From: an uncultured Candidatus Saccharibacteria bacterium
GTDB taxonomy: Bacteria > Patescibacteriota > Minisyncoccia > Phycocordibacterales > UBA918
NCBI GenBank assembly: GCA_964521645.1
Contig: CAZFSB010000003.1
Coordinates: 1-51,705, forward strand
Reading direction: 5' to 3'
DNA length: 51,705 nt
Of this stretch, positions 1,141 to 45,158 are shown piece by piece. The notes under the pieces were generated by a model. The model was given only the letters and a program-made list of their open reading frames with translations. It did no database searches and was not told where the DNA came from. Within the stretch, counting starts at the first letter, position 1; each line of letters starts with the position of its first letter. The translations under genes and the position numbers were made by a program.

Positions 1141-2019
1141 TTAATTAGACACTACCTCAGCATCAATAAAAGCTTGAATATCTCCATTCAACACGGCGTC
1201 AATGTTGCGTACTTCAGTATTGGTGCGATGATCTTTGACCAACTGATACGGATGAAGCACATACGAACGGATCTGGCTTCCCCACTCGATCTTGAGGGTC
1301 TTCTCAACCGAAAGCCCTTGCAGTTCACGACGGCGCTGCTCTTCTTCAAAAGCAAATATCTTTCCGGCGAGCAGCGCCATGCCCCGCTCGCGGTTCTGCT
1401 GCTGTGAACGTTCGGAAGAAACGTTGACCGAAATATTGGTCGGCTTATGCACGATCCGCACTGCTGTCTCGCGCTTGTTCACATTCTGCCCGCCAGCACC
1501 ACCAGAACGAGCGAACGATATCTCGAGATCATCTTCACTAAGTGCCACCGCGCTCGCGTCTTCAATGCGGGGTGATACTTCCACCAACACAAATGAGGTC
1601 TGGCGCTTGCCGTTACTATTGAATGGCGAAATACGCACCAGTCGGTGCACCCCCGATTCACGCTGCAACGTGCCATACGCACCTTTCCCCTGTATTTCAA
1701 AGGTGACGTTGCGGTAGCCGTTGTGATCGTTGGTGTTACTGTCGATCACCAGCACACCCCAACCTCGTTTCTCCGCGTAGCGCTGATACATCTCGACCAA
1801 CATACGCGCAAAGTCCTCCGCGTCGTCGCCGCCGGCGCCGGCTACAATCGTGAACACTGCATCATTGCGGTCGAATTTTCCTTTTCCTTCAGCCGTATCG
1901 CGCAACTTCTGTAGCTCTTTGATCATCGCCTGAGCCTGCTGCGGGTCATTCCAGAAGGTCGGTTCGAGCATGGTGGCTTCAATGGTAGCAATGCGTTCCT
2001 GGGGAGTTTGTTCTGACAT
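1141..2019 (-). CDS. prfB: Peptide chain release factor 2 (short form, no programmed frameshift)
   Basis: Carries SPF (RISPFNS) and GGQ ([10 protein letters not shown]) motifs and a C-terminal [10 protein letters not shown]. It is a single 292-aa ORF. Confidence 0.9.
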
Positions 2020-4959: not shown

Positions 4960-4961
4960 TG

Positions 4962-5035
4962 TGTCGACGGGAGGAATCGAACCTCCGACCCCAGCTTTAT
5001 GAGTGCTGTGCTCTAACCGTCTGAGCTACGCCGAC
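4962..5035 (-). tRNA. tRNA-Met, elongator type (anticodon CAU)
   Basis: The reverse strand GTCGGCGTAGCTCAGACGGTTAGAGCACAGCACTCATAAAGCTGGGGTCGGAGGTTCGATTCCTCCCGTCGACA folds as a cloverleaf. Its body resembles E. coli metT rather than fMet or Ile2. Confidence 0.85.
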
Positions 5036-5094: not shown

Positions 5095-5799
5095 TCAATA
5101 GTTTTTTATTCGACCATGCCCACCGAGTGTATCGAGGATACGCTCGGCTTTTGCGATATCTTCAGGAAATCCGATCGGGATCCAAAGCTCCTGTTCTACC
5201 ACGGCGATCGGGTACTCTTTCGCATATTCTTCAATGACGTCAGTGAGGTAGAACTCACCATTCTTCTCTATTTTGAGCTCGTAATCAAAGATGTGTTCAT
5301 CGAGCACCATCACTCCGGTTGAGGCAAGGTTCGATGGTGGGTGTTCTGGTTTTTCGATCATCTGCGCCAAAGTGCCGTCAGGGTGACGCACCACGATACC
5401 AAAGCGTTCCGGATTATTGGTTGTAAGCGTAAGCATTGAGCGCGTATACGATGTGGCGCGCGCGATATCTTGCGCGCCATGAAGGTCATCGGCAAACATA
5501 AAGAGGAAACGCCCCTTGATCAAGTCTTTGCAAAGCCACAGCGCGTGCCCGGTCCCCTTTTGTTCAGACTGATGGACGTACGTTACTTTTCGTCCATGAA
5601 ACTCCTCCCCGCAGTATTCTTTGATACGATCTTCTAAGTAACCCGTAACAAGAATAAGTTCGTCAACCGCAGTGGGGAGCACTTCAACGATGTAATCCAA
5701 GAGTGGCTTCCCGGAGACTTTCACCAGTGGCTTAGGGATATTATCGGTAAGAGGTCGAAGTCGCGTGCCTTTTCCGGCAGCCAGAATCACACATTGCAT
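5095..5799 (-). CDS. Sugar-phosphate nucleotidyltransferase (G1P thymidylyl/uridylyltransferase-like)
   Basis: Starts MQCVILAAGKGTRLRPLTDNIPKPL (the GxGTRLxPxT motif). TGCTATACT lies 9 nt upstream. The longer track ORF would overlap a tRNA exon. Confidence 0.8.
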   Translation of the reverse strand: MQCVILAAGKGTRLRPLTDNIPKPLVKVSGKPLLDYIVEVLPTAVDELILVTGYLEDRIKEYCGEEFHGRKVTYVHQSEQKGTGHALWLCKDLIKGRFLFMFADDLHGAQDIARATSYTRSMLTLTTNNPERFGIVVRHPDGTLAQMIEKPEHPPSNLASTGVMVLDEHIFDYELKIEKNGEFYLTDVIEEYAKEYPIAVVEQELWIPIGFPEDIAKAERILDTLGGHGRIKNY

Positions 5800-5925
5800 A
5801 TGCTCGGTAGTATAGCAAAAGGCCGCGAGCTCGCCCAGTTTGGGAGCTTGGAAGGGGTTCACTTCCGGGCCCCGCATTTTATGAGCAAAGAAAAACACCG
5901 ACGTGAGGTCGGTGCTTTTCTTTGC

Positions 5926-6225
5926 TGGTTGCGGGGCCCGGAATCGAACCGGGGTCTGGAGGTTATGCGTACCACTATAACTTTCGTTACTCAAGCCTTG
6001 CTTGATTTGTTGGTCTGGACTATACCTTCATCTGTCTCTTTCGAGCGAAGATGCCTACCATCTAGTCTCTACACCTTCCCGCCACTGGCGGGCTTGGCTC
6101 GGTATTGCCATGTTCTCCTTTTGCAAGCGAACGAAGGTTTCACCGAATTTGGCAAGTGTTCCATAAAACATTTCTGTAGTATGAGCCCTCTTGAGCCTCC
6201 CGAGGTACCTCTCCTCTACCCCGCT
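5926..6225 (-). tRNA. Initiator tRNA-fMet (CAU) interrupted by a group I intron; exons 6225-6194 and 5967-5926; CCA encoded
   Basis: The exons join into a 74-nt cloverleaf, AGCGGGGTAGAGGAGAGGTACCTCGGGAGGCT|CATAACCTCCAGACCCCGGTTCGATTCCGGGCCCCGCAACCA. It has A11:U24 and a 1x72 mismatch, and its 3' end is as in E. coli fMet. Confidence 0.85.
5968..6193 (-). ncRNA. Group I intron (IC3-like), 226 nt, inserted after U33 of tRNA-fMet
   Basis: Contains CAAATTCGGTGAAACC, ATGGCAATACCGAGCCAAGCC, GAAGGTGTAGAGACTAGATGG and GAAGGTATAGTCC core strings. It is preceded by U and ends in G. Confidence 0.8.
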
Positions 6226-6304
6226 ATGTTTTTCCTTTTGTTTTGCTTAAAATACACACAAAACAGTACGTGGAAAATACACCATTTTTGACAGTTTGGC
6301 AAGT

Positions 6305-32108: not shown

Positions 32109-33269
32109 TTATTTCTTATCCTGGCACTGGTCTTCTAAGTTGGCTTTTACTCGCTGGTACTCTTTCACCTTCCACTCTTGTAGCTGGTTGTACTTTTCGG
32201 TTATCTGCGTTTCGATTCCTGCCAACTCCGCGCGACGCTCGGCGTTAAGCGCATAACTTTCGGCTAAATACTGATCGACCGCTTGCTTACTGAGATATTG
32301 GTCACGCAATATCCCGATCTCCTCATCACTCAAGTTCGGACTCGGAATGACTGCTCCCTGTGTATCCTTCATGAGTTGCACGACAATGTCTTTTGGATTA
32401 CCGACACTCTCAATGGTCTCAAGCGTAGCGTTCCAGGCGATGGACTTTATCTTGCCGGTCGTATCGTCGGTATTTATTTGATACTCGGAAGCACTTGGAG
32501 GAATGTGTGCCTGGATGACCTTGAGACCGGCGCCGATCCCTTCCGCCACTGTCTCGGGGTTAAGCAGCTTACCAACCGATTCAGCCGTTCCCTTTCCTCC
32601 TTTGATGGTTGTGTAGGTCACATATGAAAGCCGCCAGAACGCCTTCAGGAGGTTCACTTTCACATTTTGCACGAGTGCTTGGCGATACTCGCGTAATGCT
32701 AAACGTTCGGCGCGATCGGTCTCCATCTGGTACTCGAGTTCATGAGCCTGTGCCACCAAGACCGCGATCTCATCAAGGGTTTGATTGAACTGCTGGACCT
32801 CGTAGCTCACATCACTGCCGAGACGGTCATCAAAGTCAGAGTATTTCTCCCAATCGGTGTCGATGTTTTGGAGCGCTTGTGCGCACTCGCGTTTTTCGGT
32901 GTCGGTCTTTTCTGGCTCGACACACCTACTCCCCTCAAGCACATCACCCTCAGTACAGGTGGTGCACGACCAGTTACTGACATTCCAGTACCCACCGCTA
33001 GCGCGACACTCTACGGCCATAGCTTGGATACGCTCACGATTCCACGCGCGAAACTGCTCTAGCACGTAGCTGCCAGCCGTACTTGGACTTAATCCAATAG
33101 CATCGCAGTACTCATTGTGAAACGCACACTTGCAGTACTGGTAGTTGATGAACATGCCACAGTAGTCATCCTTCACGCTCGGCACTTCGTAGCGTTCTAC
33201 CAACGCTCCTGCATAGGCCACCGGGGCGAGCAGGCTTAGGATGAGGAAAAGCGAGAGAGCCGCTTTCAT
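32109..33269 (-). CDS. Secreted Cys-rich / coiled-coil hypothetical protein
   Basis: Signal peptide MKAALSLFLILSLLAPVAYA. TATACT lies 8 nt upstream of the ATG. Confidence 0.6.
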   Translation of the reverse strand: MKAALSLFLILSLLAPVAYAGALVERYEVPSVKDDYCGMFINYQYCKCAFHNEYCDAIGLSPSTAGSYVLEQFRAWNRERIQAMAVECRASGGYWNVSNWSCTTCTEGDVLEGSRCVEPEKTDTEKRECAQALQNIDTDWEKYSDFDDRLGSDVSYEVQQFNQTLDEIAVLVAQAHELEYQMETDRAERLALREYRQALVQNVKVNLLKAFWRLSYVTYTTIKGGKGTAESVGKLLNPETVAEGIGAGLKVIQAHIPPSASEYQINTDDTTGKIKSIAWNATLETIESVGNPKDIVVQLMKDTQGAVIPSPNLSDEEIGILRDQYLSKQAVDQYLAESYALNAERRAELAGIETQITEKYNQLQEWKVKEYQRVKANLEDQCQDKK

Positions 33270-33802: not shown

Positions 33803-33875
33803 CCGCCAATAGCTCAGTTGGTAGAGCGCAGAGCTTATACCTCTGTGGTCCTTGGTTCGAGTCCAAGTTGGCGGA
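33803..33875 (+). tRNA. tRNA-Ile (anticodon UAU)
   Basis: CCGCCAATAGCTCAGTTGGTAGAGCGCAGAGCTTATACCTCTGTGGTCCTTGGTTCGAGTCCAAGTTGGCGGA folds as a cloverleaf. The anticodon loop is CTTATAC. Confidence 0.85.
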
Positions 33876-33892
33876 CAAAAGATTGAATTAGA

Positions 33893-41346: not shown

Positions 41347-41753
41347 GGGGATGCTAGGCATCGACGGTCAGTCGTGTCGGATGTGTGCAGTGCCGAAAAC
41401 TGGTAATCAATTCGTTAAAAGGTTCCAACTTGTACGTGCAGACAAAGCACTACCAAGCCCTTACGCTCGCGCGTTTGGGTTCGCTCCCGCATTTGCGTAA
41501 TCTTACGCTCGCCGGATCGATGCTCCGCTCATAAACGTCTCATACGTGAGTCGGGGTAGAATAGACACGAGACTGTGGAGACCTTTGCCGTTGTCATAGG
41601 TTTTCAAGATTGTAACAACTCGAGACCGTAGTGTTTGGTTAATCTTCTAGCTACGGCCTTTAAACAGAAGCAATTCTGACAAAGGCTAACTACGCACTGT
41701 AGACTCACCTTCGCACCCTGATTCGGACGGGAGTTCGATTCTCCCCATCTCCA
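41347..41753 (+). ncRNA. ssrA: tmRNA (SsrA), standard one-piece; tag ADKALPSPYARAFGFAPAFA
   Basis: The 5' GGGGATGCTAGGCATCGACGG pairs with the 3' CATCTCC-A (G3.U70). The T arm is GGGAGTTCGATTCTCCC. The in-frame tag GCA GAC ... GCA TTT GCG TAA runs 41438-41500. Confidence 0.85.
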
Positions 41754-41793
41754 CTCGTAATAATATTAGCGCCATTTGGCGCTTTTATTATTT

Positions 41794-41958: not shown

Positions 41959-42054
41959 GACGTAGAAATATGTAGAAGGATATGGAAGTTTACTAAACTA
42001 TTTACTTTTATAATATTTAATGCATAATAAAAGAAACGTTCTGGAGGATTAAAA

Positions 42055-42276
42055 ATGTCTGTAACCCCACTGTTCGACGAAACCGGGAACCACTGCCTTC
42101 GCCCTGTTCAAGGGCCGGAAGAAGGTGTTCTACTTATGGAAAAGCTCGAGGAAGGTACCCTGAAGAGCTGTTACTTGGGTGACTTACTCGAGTTGATCGA
42201 CAAGCTTGAAATACCACTCGAAACTGTCATCAACCTGATTGGTGACGCGCGAGTAATGCTTGGCGAAGACGTCTAA
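42055..42276 (+). CDS. Hypothetical small acidic protein (73 aa) in the low-GC islet
   Basis: SD GGAGGA lies 6 nt before the ATG. Confidence 0.5.
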   Translation: MSVTPLFDETGNHCLRPVQGPEEGVLLMEKLEEGTLKSCYLGDLLELIDKLEIPLETVINLIGDARVMLGEDV

Positions 42277-42457
42277 TCACAACGGTTCCCAATAAGCCGT
42301 CCATCACTCATTAAAGAGTCGGTTGGGTGGCTTTTTTATTTACCACAAACCCACCACCGTTAGAAAATTTGCGGATTCCATTTCAATCAAAGAGGTTTTA
42401 ACTTGGTACAAAGTCTTCCACACTTTAAAAAATACCGTTTCATTGAGCGGTATTTTT

Positions 42458-43261
42458 TTAATTAAATCTGAAAGATTCTACCACCCCATTAAATTCTCGA
42501 ACGAGTTTTTCTTTATCAAAAGAATCAACATCAACTCCTCTTCCTTCTGGAACATCTATCTGCACCATAATCACTCTATTTTCACCAATCAAGACCCCAC
42601 TAAATCTATACATCTCTATGTCCTTAGTTATTTTATTATAAACGATAGTTTTTACTCCAAGCGTTCTATGTCCGTTTATATTATCAATTTCATAGACCAC
42701 GCTTTCTATGTTTGGATCAGTATTCTGTGCCAACATTTCTTCCCACACACTCTTATAATACGATTCAGTATCAGTCGCCTCCAATAGATGACTGAAGTCT
42801 GCAAATCGCATAACTAAATCAAAGTATTGGTTTTGACCAGATTTGCCGACAAGCAATACCTGTGAATCTTCCAGAGCTTTAACATCGAACGTTACATCGT
42901 AAAGTTCTTTTAGTGTTTGAGAGTCATACCCTGAGTCAGAATCAGCTACCACATCAAGGAAATTATGGTCTAACGCCAAATATCCATCAGGAACACTGAA
43001 ACTATATCGTCCAACAATATTTTGGTAAGTTTTCGAAGTCGTGTCAGCTATGTTTTCTTCGGAAAGAGTTTCACTAATTACAACACGTTCGATCTCAACT
43101 ATTTTCTCTGGGGCATACTGATACCCAATCCAACCACCTATGAAAGGTAGAATTACAAAAAGTACCATTGCTAAATATTTGGATAGTGGAGTTACAGTGT
43201 GTAAGCTACTTTTTTCTTGAACCTCTTGCTCAATAGTTTCTTGATTTATCTCAGGTTCCAT
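42458..43261 (-). CDS. Membrane-anchored hypothetical protein in the low-GC islet
   Basis: The start MEPEINQ at 43261 has TATACT 6 nt upstream. It has one TM helix, and the region is visibly AT-rich. Confidence 0.55.
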   Translation of the reverse strand: MEPEINQETIEQEVQEKSSLHTVTPLSKYLAMVLFVILPFIGGWIGYQYAPEKIVEIERVVISETLSEENIADTTSKTYQNIVGRYSFSVPDGYLALDHNFLDVVADSDSGYDSQTLKELYDVTFDVKALEDSQVLLVGKSGQNQYFDLVMRFADFSHLLEATDTESYYKSVWEEMLAQNTDPNIESVVYEIDNINGHRTLGVKTIVYNKITKDIEMYRFSGVLIGENRVIMVQIDVPEGRGVDVDSFDKEKLVREFNGVVESFRFN

Positions 43262-43476
43262 ATCATCAGTATATATTATGTTTAATACTACCTTTGTGTA
43301 CTTAAACACACTGATTGTTAAGTAGTTTCAAGTACTTTTTGAATTGTTGACGAACTGTTGTAATACTCCCAAAAGTTTTTCAGGTACGTCCTTATAGACC
43401 TCAGAACTCGTGAGTTATTTTTGTGATTCTCCCCATCTTCAGCTGCAGAGCGTTGAAAGTGCGGTACACTAGTACT

Positions 43477-43848
43477 ATGACAAAGAAAAAGATCCTCGTT
43501 GTTGAAGATTCGCCATACCTCGCGGAGTCGCTGTCAGACATGCTCGACATCAAGGGGCATGAGGCGATCATTGCTCCCACTGGACGTGATGGTGTGACCA
43601 TGGCCATCGAGCAGCAGCCCGACCTCATTCTCCTCGACATCCGTCTTCCCGACATCGATGGATACGAAGTGTACCGACGCATCAGAGAAAATGACTGGGG
43701 CAAGAATGCCAACATCATGGTGCTGACCGCTTCAGAATCGACCGAGAACATCTCAAAGAATATCGACCTTCCCAAAGAAGACGTCCTCTTCAAACCAGAA
43801 TGGAGCGTCACTGACCTGCTCGCTAAAATCGAGGAGAAACTCTCTTAA
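43477..43848 (+). CDS. Single-domain response regulator (receiver only)
   Basis: Contains KILVVEDS and ILLDIRLPDIDG. TACACT lies 6 nt upstream of the ATG. Confidence 0.85.
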   Translation: MTKKKILVVEDSPYLAESLSDMLDIKGHEAIIAPTGRDGVTMAIEQQPDLILLDIRLPDIDGYEVYRRIRENDWGKNANIMVLTASESTENISKNIDLPKEDVLFKPEWSVTDLLAKIEEKLS

Positions 43849-45158
43849 TTCTTTCCTTTTTCTTCAGGCAATTCAAGCGGGAGAATAACTTCAAATGTCG
43901 TGCCGATGTTTTCGGTGGTCGTAAATGATATCTGTCCCTTCAGGACCGAAACCGCCTCGTGCACGATGTAGAGACCAAGTCCGGTTCCGTCAGGAACATT
44001 GCGTACCGCGTTTGCCGCCCGGAAGAGCTTCGAGAAGATCTGGTCTTGGTCTTCGGCCGGAATACCCATACCGTTGTCAGCCACGGTGATGATGATGCTG
44101 TCGTCCTTGCGACCGAAGCCAAGGTGGATGGTCCCCTTCTCTCTCGTGTACTTGGTGGCGTTGGAATACAGGTTGGTCACGATCATGCGCATGAGGTTCG
44201 GATCAGTGATGATCGTGTTAACTGATTCGTCATAGAAGGTTTTGACCGTCAGTCCTTTCTGCTGTACCCGGGGCGCTTGTTCAGACATGATGTCTTCAAA
44301 CAGCTCAGACAGTGATACTGTCGTGTATTCGGCCTGGAAGGTACCTAGTTCAAAGCGCGATACTCGTAGGAAATCGTCTACCAGAAGCGCCATTCGTTTT
44401 ATGCTCACGAGCAGGCGGTCGATGTATTTCTGTTGACGCTCGGTCAGTGAATCTGGGTTATCCATGAGGAGCAATTCCGCGCTCCACTTCATCCCCGCGA
44501 TCGGCGTTCGCAATTGGTGAGAGGCCAGCGAGACGAATTCCGACTTGGCGTCCTCGGCGCGTTTTTGCTTGGTGATGTCAACCAGGGTCATCAGGCCGAT
44601 CTTCTCTCCAGCCACATCAGCTGAGCCAAAGAGTGAGAGCAGAGCCCACGCCTCGCGGTGGTCAGGGCGCTTCAAACTCACCATCTCGTCGCTGACCGGT
44701 ACGCCATTTTGAAACTTCTCGATCAAAAAATCGAGGTGCTCTAACTCATCGCACTGCAGTCGGGCGAACACATTGATACCTTTCACCTTGGTCTGGCTGA
44801 CACCGAGCATACGCACGGCAGAAGTATTGGCCGATTTGATGTGCCCCTCAAGGTCGATTATCAGGTACGGTACCGGACTGTTCTTATACAGCTGAATGTA
44901 CAGCTCCTCTGAGGTGACCGCTAGGTCCATCGCTACATTCTTTTTTATTTCTTCGGAGGTCTCTGTCGAGTGAGCGATGTCATACACATTCTTGGCAATG
45001 AACACACAGCAGAGAAACGCCGTAAGGAAGAGCAAGCCGCCCAGATCGATCTCTGAAAAATCATAGAAAACAGCCAAGAGCACCACGATGCCAAATGAGA
45101 TGGTGAATACCAACAGCGAGTGGATCAGTGGTTTTTTACTTTGACCGGAAGAAGACAT
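43845..45158 (-). CDS. Sensor histidine kinase (2 TM, PAS-like, HisKA, HATPase_c)
   Basis: H-box SHQLRTP, with N, G1 and G2 boxes (DNGMGI, GTGLGL). Confidence 0.9.
   Translation of the reverse strand: MSSSGQSKKPLIHSLLVFTISFGIVVLLAVFYDFSEIDLGGLLFLTAFLCCVFIAKNVYDIAHSTETSEEIKKNVAMDLAVTSEELYIQLYKNSPVPYLIIDLEGHIKSANTSAVRMLGVSQTKVKGINVFARLQCDELEHLDFLIEKFQNGVPVSDEMVSLKRPDHREAWALLSLFGSADVAGEKIGLMTLVDITKQKRAEDAKSEFVSLASHQLRTPIAGMKWSAELLLMDNPDSLTERQQKYIDRLLVSIKRMALLVDDFLRVSRFELGTFQAEYTTVSLSELFEDIMSEQAPRVQQKGLTVKTFYDESVNTIITDPNLMRMIVTNLYSNATKYTREKGTIHLGFGRKDDSIIITVADNGMGIPAEDQDQIFSKLFRAANAVRNVPDGTGLGLYIVHEAVSVLKGQISFTTTENIGTTFEVILPLELPEEKGKN

Follow-up and report, generated by a model that had tools for sequence, protein, structure and literature searches.

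The window analysed here, an entire contig of 51,705 bp that carries housekeeping genes, holds an initiator-type tRNA gene that is read from the minus strand and is interrupted in the part that encodes the anticodon loop. The gene and the elements associated with it are the following.

6274..6302, minus strand: promoter-like site, TTGCCA, 17-nt spacer, TATTTT (consensus match only)
6194..6225, minus strand: 5' exon, 32 nt, tRNA positions 1-33 in standard numbering
5968..6193, minus strand: group I intron, 226 nt, assigned to the IC3 type, no ORF
5926..5967, minus strand: 3' exon, 42 nt, CCA included
5887..5914, minus strand: terminator-like hairpin, CACCGAC-CUCAC-GUCGGUG, then UUUUUCUUU
4961..5035, minus strand: second CAU tRNA, elongator type, with G1-C72 and C11:G24

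The 5' exon comprises the 5' strand of the acceptor stem, the D arm, the 5' strand of the anticodon stem and the loop nucleotides C32 and U33. The 3' exon supplies the anticodon CAU, the remaining loop, the 3' strand of the anticodon stem, a 4-nt variable loop and the T arm, and ends with the 3' strand of the acceptor stem, the discriminator A and an encoded CCA (5928-5926; …GCAACCA). Joined on the minus strand, the two exons read AGCGGGGTAGAGGAGAGGTACCTCGGGAGGCT followed by CATAACCTCCAGACCCCGGTTCGATTCCGGGCCCCGCAACCA. ARAGORN folds this spliced sequence into a 74-nt tRNA-Met(CAU) with an A1xA72 mismatch, a CUCAUAA loop and a D stem, GAGG/CCUC, that gives A11:U24. The 74-nt CAU cloverleaf that the initial annotation had assembled by eye from 6225-6194 and 5967-5926 is thereby correct to the base, and the encoded CCA, A11:U24 and 1x72 mismatch listed with it are all present. 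Some features of the joined tRNA are unusual for an initiator: A1xA72, A29:U41, the 7-nt D loop and the 4-nt variable loop. In the unspliced window, ARAGORN called no tRNA at 6225-5926. In intron mode the unspliced gene gave a tRNA-Leu(caa) call, which was rejected because the junction was misplaced. Most uninterrupted relatives with an identical tRNA body end in …GCAACAA or …GCAACAC, with CCA not encoded.

The −10 hexamer of the promoter-like site ends 48 nt before tRNA position 1. The consensus scan found one such site where 0.4 were expected in shuffles, and the site may act as the promoter of the tRNA gene. The terminator-like hairpin with its U run begins 11 nt past the CCA; the scan lists the same hairpin (5887..5914) on the plus strand, also with a T-rich tail. 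On the 3' side, the neighbouring ORF (5095-5994) has its start codon, a TTG, in the P9a part of the intron and continues across exon 2 and the terminator. About 30 residues separate its NTP-transferase domain from an in-frame ATG at 5877, and the alignment with homologues of the NTP-transferase starts only at residue 20-27. Judged by these positions, the overlap with the tRNA is a mechanical over-extension of the reading frame. The apparent run of this ORF into the tRNA had been taken for an artefact at the outset, and the TTG start in the intron, the downstream position of the domain and the ATG at 5877 agree with that reading.

The intron starts after U33 and ends in G (omega-G at 5968). The site reads CU/ca...cg/CAUAA, with U at −1 and G at omega, and lies between nucleotides 2 and 3 of the loop (U33/C34). 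A short ‘CA’ repeat at both intron boundaries makes three formal junctions possible. The two other joins, shifted by 1 or 2 nt, were rejected since the intron would then end in C or A; the junction is unambiguous because only one join gives both a U before the 5' splice site and a terminal G. Coordinates and sequence thus bear out the earlier placement of 226 nt that begin right after U33 and end in G. The longest ORF inside these 226 nt is 38 aa.

A search with the Rfam covariance model RF00028 (Intron_gpI), which the initial annotation had proposed as a check, was significant. The match covers 6203-6001 on the minus strand. Its score, 54.1 bits, exceeds the gathering threshold of 50, and the E-value is 4.8e-11 when the whole window is searched and 4.2e-13 in a local search. 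The intron is only 4 bits over the gathering score; the Rfam group I model was built without bacterial seed sequences (Williams, 2020, bioRxiv 10.1101/2020.01.27.920355), and 7 of the 9 closest intron-bearing relatives listed exceed the gathering score, at 53-70 bits.

A P1-P9 model was drawn by hand, guided by the alignment of seed sequences published for group I introns of bacterial tRNAs. All of its pairs (63/63) are standard, and an unconstrained minimum free energy fold gives P1, P6a, P8, P9a and P9b independently. The elements of the model are given below, with nucleotides (nt) numbered along the intron.

6184..6197, minus strand: P1, exon GGCU plus intron C1 (6197-6193) paired with the guide GGGCU (6188-6184), AAGA loop
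6162..6183, minus strand: P2 hairpin with a GAAA tetraloop, intron nt 11-32
6151..6156, minus strand: 5' strand of P3, nt 38-43, partner 6054-6059
6098..6147, minus strand: P4 (nt 47-52 with 91-96) enclosing J4/5, P5 and its loop (J4/5-P5-loop, nt 57-86)
6074..6097, minus strand: P6 and the P6a hairpin, nt 97-120
6063..6069, minus strand: 5' strand of P7, GAGACUA with a bulged A, nt 125-131, partner 6017-6022 (UAGUCC)
6054..6059, minus strand: 3' strand of P3, nt 135-140
6029..6053, minus strand: P8 hairpin with an inner GAAA-capped stem, nt 141-165
6017..6028, minus strand: J8/7 (AAGGUA) and the 3' strand of P7, UAGUCC, nt 166-177
5968..6014, minus strand: P9 (ACCA/UGGU), P9a, P9b (GAAA loop) and the tail ACG, ending in omega-G at 5968

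Covariation was assessed in a MAFFT alignment of 33 non-redundant short introns of initiator tRNA genes. In this alignment 89.3% of the cells are paired, a fraction that falls to 32-48% once the 3' partners are displaced by 1-3 columns. As many as 40 of the 63 pairs are changed on both sides, and none of 500 shuffles reached the observed pairing values. The fraction of cells paired is 99.5% in P3, 96% in P4, 91% in P6a, 100% in P7 and 97% in P8, and the P4/P5 helices lie at 96-100%, the interior of P5 excepted. Covariation is strong in P3, P6a, P8 and P9b. Changes on both sides affect all seven pairs of P2, four of six in P3, all six in P6a and four of five in P8. Within the P9 region, 85% of the cells of helix 13 and 98% of those of helix 15 are paired, and all five pairs of helix 15 are changed on both sides; P9a, which MAFFT aligned poorly, is 48% paired. 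The layout of P9, P9a and P9b is that of the Tpc1.fMet.2Ug and Sba135.Met.2Ug seeds.

The U(−1).G(+7) wobble, which marks the 5' splice site, and the two G-C/C-G pairs that flank it are invariant in 33/33 introns. Five of the pairs in P7 are likewise invariant and the last occurs as AU, UA, GC or CG, while AGTCC in its 3' strand is found in all 33 introns; by analogy with characterised group I introns, P7 would be the guanosine-binding helix. All columns that are invariant across the 33 introns are kept in the window intron. A chance match to the group I model was rejected on the E-value, the covariation and the exact junction of the empty site described below. The original identification as a group I intron is upheld by the RF00028 score above gathering and by a full P1-P9 fold with covariation, which could be drawn without a missing element.

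Intron-less alleles were sought by scanning metagenome contigs with the spliced junction sequence. At least 120 contigs carry this distinctive tRNA without an intron, and in at least 19 metagenome contigs the uninterrupted gene is 100% identical to the joined exons over the 71 nt up to the discriminator. Identity was judged by exact string match, since MAFFT misplaced exon 1 when the filled site was aligned with the empty one. The uninterrupted genes in L148 and L184 begin with 32 nt that are identical to the 5' exon. Among the matches listed, L148 is the closest syntenic relative, with identities to the window of 84% for GatA, 78% for LigA and 84% for the NTP-transferase. Its uninterrupted gene, which scores 57.3 bits on the Rfam tRNA model, is identical to the joined exons, and the junction is therefore fixed independently of the intron sequence. 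The intron-less target site reads GGGAGGCTCATAACCTCCAG, with the junction context GGAGGCU/CAUAACC.

The gene order ligA-gatA-hypothetical-tRNA-NTP-transferase is common to intron-bearing and intron-less relatives, and by this comparison the interrupted gene sits at a syntenic, orthologous initiator tRNA locus. The same tRNA type and gene neighbourhood occur in a Kaiserbacteria MAG (L120, GatA 75%), in Parcubacteria/Paceibacterota MAGs (L089, L093, L017 and L024) and in MAGs labelled Saccharibacteria (L107 and L059). By these relatives, the window comes from a member of the Patescibacteria (CPR) that most likely resembles Parcubacteria/Kaiserbacteria. The nearest introns among the matches listed are those of L120, L107 and L089, each 79% identical to the window intron. 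The six closest relatives by GatA (76-84%) among the matches listed are all intron-less, and the intron-bearing relatives listed start at a GatA identity of 75% (L120, 75%; L107, 68%). The intron is polymorphic within the lineage, present in some members and absent from others, and it is dispensable for the lineage because those six relatives do without it.

The joined tRNA shows two initiator features, the absence of a Watson-Crick pair at 1:72 (A1xA72) and A11:U24. Its closest match in E. coli is the tRNA-Met gene between argG and rimP, which we take to be metY, an initiator tRNA gene of the metY-rimP-nusA-infB operon. The initial assignment as an initiator-type tRNA stands on the mismatch, on A11:U24 and on this match. 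The host could instead be an elongator tRNA-Met or a tRNA-Ile2 with a lysidine-modified CAU anticodon, since this loop position is a site of group I introns in both of those tRNA kinds too; about 30 of 97 mapped split CAU tRNAs have G1-C72 and C11:G24 and the same 2Ug site. The window tRNA is also without the full set of three consecutive G:C pairs in the anticodon stem, A29:U41 being followed by G30:C40 and G31:C39, a detail absent from the initial annotation. However, A29:U41 recurs in the identical uninterrupted genes and also in initiator-type tRNAs of Omnitrophota, Planctomycetota and further Patescibacteria, so it is a lineage trait and not evidence against initiator function. With A1xA72, A11:U24 and the metY match pointing to an initiator, and with a separate elongator-type CAU tRNA (4961-5035) and a tRNA-Ile(UAU) in the same window, an elongator or Ile2 identity is scarcely credible.

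The tRNA-Ile(UAU), at 33803-33876 on the plus strand (70.6 bits), has an anticodon that is uncommon in bacteria. It suggests that AUA is read without a lysidine-modified CAU tRNA, and the CAU tRNA at 4961-5035 is therefore probably the elongator tRNA-Met; it is no alternative initiator. Because the other CAU tRNA is of elongator type and the tRNA-Ile has UAU, the interrupted gene is the only initiator-type tRNA within the window.

Other features of the window lie apart from this locus. A tmRNA at 41347-41756 on the plus strand (94.6 bits) has a long predicted tag, ADKALPSPYARAFGFAPAFA, that ends in AFA versus the usual ...LAA. The segment immediately downstream (42001-44000) has a GC content of 0.41 versus about 0.52 elsewhere and could be an island integrated at the tmRNA gene. 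The release-factor gene at 1141-2019 (minus strand) is short and RF-2-like; a product of just 292 aa holds PCRF and RF-1 domains, and the match to the PCRF profile does not begin before position 94. Upstream of it, neither a CTTTGA site nor an in-frame N-terminal segment, as for a prfB-type programmed frameshift, was found; a 75% identical homologue in L089 has the same extent. At 32109-33269 on the minus strand lies a gene for a 386-aa protein with a signal-peptide-like start and a Cys-rich N-terminal third, for which no Pfam match is on record. Four other assemblies (L001-L004) encode this protein with 100% identity, and its gene is 91.9% identical in DNA to that of L002, with 94 differences, all synonymous; for the adjoining gene, identity amounts to 84.6% at the DNA level and 87% at the protein level. 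These values point to extreme purifying selection on an unannotated secreted protein.

Taken together, the locus is best described as a functional initiator tRNA-fMet gene with a compact, ORF-less IC3 group I intron between U33 and C34, a reading to which we assign a probability of about 0.9. The splicing activity of the intron is presumed from its conservation. A decaying pseudogene, in which the intron no longer splices and the cell uses an uninterrupted initiator gene elsewhere, would accord with the RF00028 score just over threshold, with the uninterrupted genes of close relatives such as L148 (GatA 84%) and with the coverage of a single 51.7-kb contig, beyond which a second initiator gene is possible. 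Yet all core helices are intact, every column invariant in the alignment of 33 introns is kept, and the exons are 100% identical to uninterrupted genes that look functional. The promoter-like site and terminator are in place, the locus is the syntenic, orthologous one for the initiator tRNA, and tRNA genes are usually single-copy in reduced CPR genomes. On this evidence decay of the gene is highly improbable.

For the functional gene, the following course of events is proposed. Transcription would run from the gene's own promoter to the terminator just past the CCA, and the 226-nt intron would fold into P1-P9. The guide GGGCU would pair with the end of exon 1 (GGCU/C), placing U33 in the U.G wobble, and a free guanosine bound in P7 would attack after U33. 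The terminal G226 would then occupy the G-site, and the freed 3'-OH of U33 would attack after G226, joining U33 to C34 and creating the CUCAUAA loop. Ordinary end-processing would then give the initiator tRNA. Attack by a guanosine bound in P7, followed by exchange for the terminal G and exon ligation, is established group I chemistry. It is by analogy with that chemistry that we infer catalysis by this intron, on which the cell may depend.

The insertion site corresponds exactly to the classical and widespread class ‘fMet.2Ug’, a name that denotes insertion after the second nucleotide of the anticodon loop with U at −1 and G at omega, in IC3 introns (Williams, 2020, bioRxiv 10.1101/2020.01.27.920355). 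According to the papers that cite the original report, group I introns of tRNA-fMet were first described in cyanobacteria (Biniszkiewicz, Cesnaviciene and Shub, 1994, cited in PMC3610870 and PMC1995217). The intron of Synechocystis PCC 6803 is 655 nt long and encodes the PD-(D/E)XK homing endonuclease I-Ssp6803I (PMC1995217), and tRNAs with group I introns have already been reported for CPR genomes (PMC8172020). The window intron shares with the Synechocystis class the host gene, the CU/CAUAA site, the U at −1 and the omega-G, and with the cyanobacterial fMet.2Ug introns the IC3-type P1-P9 architecture, the GAAA loops on P2 and P9b and the P9/P9a/P9b tail; its overall identity to the Tpc1.fMet.2Ug seed is 61.5%. 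In contrast to the 655-nt Synechocystis intron with its endonuclease, it has 226 nt, a minimal 4-nt P1 loop and no ORF, and its host is of Patescibacteria type with an unusual initiator tRNA. The most similar seed overall is Sba135.Met.2Ug (64.2%), whose ...GGUACG 3' end is also that of the window intron. The ‘Met.2Ug’ and ‘Ile2.2Ug’ introns of Williams (2020) have the same splice context, CU/CAUAA, but reside in elongator-type CAU tRNAs with G1-C72 and C11:G24, and the ORF of their long forms is another one, about 120 aa in length and encoded on the opposite strand. The IC3 assignment of the window intron follows from alignment with seeds whose own IC3 status comes from Williams (2020).

A second close system is the tRNA-Ile(CAU) intron of Azoarcus (Aol6.Ile2.5Ug). 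Its core is identical to that of the window intron at 65 of 71 positions, compared over four segments (J3/4-P4, P4'-P6, P6'-P7-P3' and J8/7-P7'). Both introns are small, have GAAA tetraloops on P2 and P9 and have no P5abc extension. They differ in the host tRNA, in the insertion point (after U36, loop position 5, in Azoarcus versus after U33, position 2, in the window) and in the 3' region, where Azoarcus has a single P9 hairpin instead of P9/P9a/P9b; overall identity is only 54%. The Azoarcus intron is the structural model for IC3 ribozymes. The initial annotation had called the window intron Azoarcus-like and IC3 and had described four core strings as matching almost base for base; all four are present, and the near-identical core, the common architecture and the GAAA loops on P2 and P9b agree with that description.

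The distribution of the family was surveyed in one genome per species with a pattern running from the ribozyme core to the G/CATAA junction; the intron loci listed do not include the window's own genome. The same core and 3' junction occur in at least 120 species genomes from many phyla, those among the listed loci including Cyanobacteria, Patescibacteria, Proteobacteria, Nitrospirota, Chloroflexota, Acidobacteriota, Bacteroidota, Planctomycetota and others. Among these loci, 97 split CAU tRNAs were mapped, about two-thirds of them initiator-type. Exons of the relatives were placed with a geometric exon mapper, as ARAGORN in intron mode often took false, distant 5' exons; the mapper misses loci cut by a boundary, such as L120.

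Longer members of the family carry coding sequence. Initiator-tRNA introns of 600-695 nt contain a 149-aa ORF that starts about 24 nt into the intron (L029, L037, L064 and L096, of which L029 and L096 are Patescibacteria). The ORF of L096 matches PDB 2OST with E = 1.9e-55 (database title ‘Putative endonuclease’), an entry that is presumably the structure of I-Ssp6803I. The window intron, in which this intron-encoded PD-(D/E)XK endonuclease ORF of about 150 aa is absent, belongs to a mobile family whose longer members encode a homing endonuclease of the I-Ssp6803I type. Long introns (about 600-620 nt) at that loop position are also found in CAU tRNAs with G1-C72, of elongator or Ile2 type (L005, L013, L015, L044, L053, L063, L079, L090 and L102). 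In eight of these nine, an ORF of about 95-125 aa runs antisense to the tRNA and differs from the I-Ssp6803I-type ORF of the initiator introns; in the long intron of L005, no ORF of 80 aa or more was found.

The history of the intron can be read in more than one way. It may have been acquired recently by horizontal transfer and not inherited within the lineage, either through homing by a relative that has the endonuclease, the ORF being lost later, or by reverse splicing. The absence of the intron from the six closest GatA relatives listed (76-84%), the intron-bearing ones being more distant, agrees with transfer, as does the presence of the I-Ssp6803I-type endonuclease in the same intron family in the Patescibacteria L029 and L096. 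On the other hand, the nearest introns listed (79%) belong to hosts of the same Parcubacteria-type lineage in which the synteny is shared, and the identity of the introns declines approximately in parallel with that of the host proteins. The distribution is equally well explained by vertical descent with repeated loss, and we lean somewhat against recent transfer. The question concerns history only, and either answer is compatible with a functional, spliced initiator gene. A bolder proposal combines two claims: that the interrupted gene is the sole initiator gene, which would make initiation ribozyme-dependent, and that the intron spread recently and independently of an endonuclease of its own and was not shaped by inheritance and loss. 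It draws on the presence of the intron here, its absence from the closest relatives listed and the lack of an endonuclease, and as a whole it seems unlikely. If true, the spread would have taken a route such as reverse splicing, or would have relied on an endonuclease provided in trans.

What is new here is that a Parcubacteria-type lineage has a compact form of the classical tRNA-fMet intron, 226 nt long and devoid of an ORF; the general understanding of group I introns and of translation initiation is unchanged by it. For annotation, the consequence is that ARAGORN without intron mode misses the gene, and the genome would seem to lack an initiator tRNA because standard tRNA finders overlook the interrupted copy, while an ORF caller lets the adjacent gene run on across the tRNA exon. 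An orthologous locus at which the intron is cleanly present or absent could help in work on how CPR bacteria gain and lose introns, and the compact intron could serve the search for small natural ribozymes. For the organism itself, with its reduced genome, it is plausible that translation initiation depends on the splicing of this intron.
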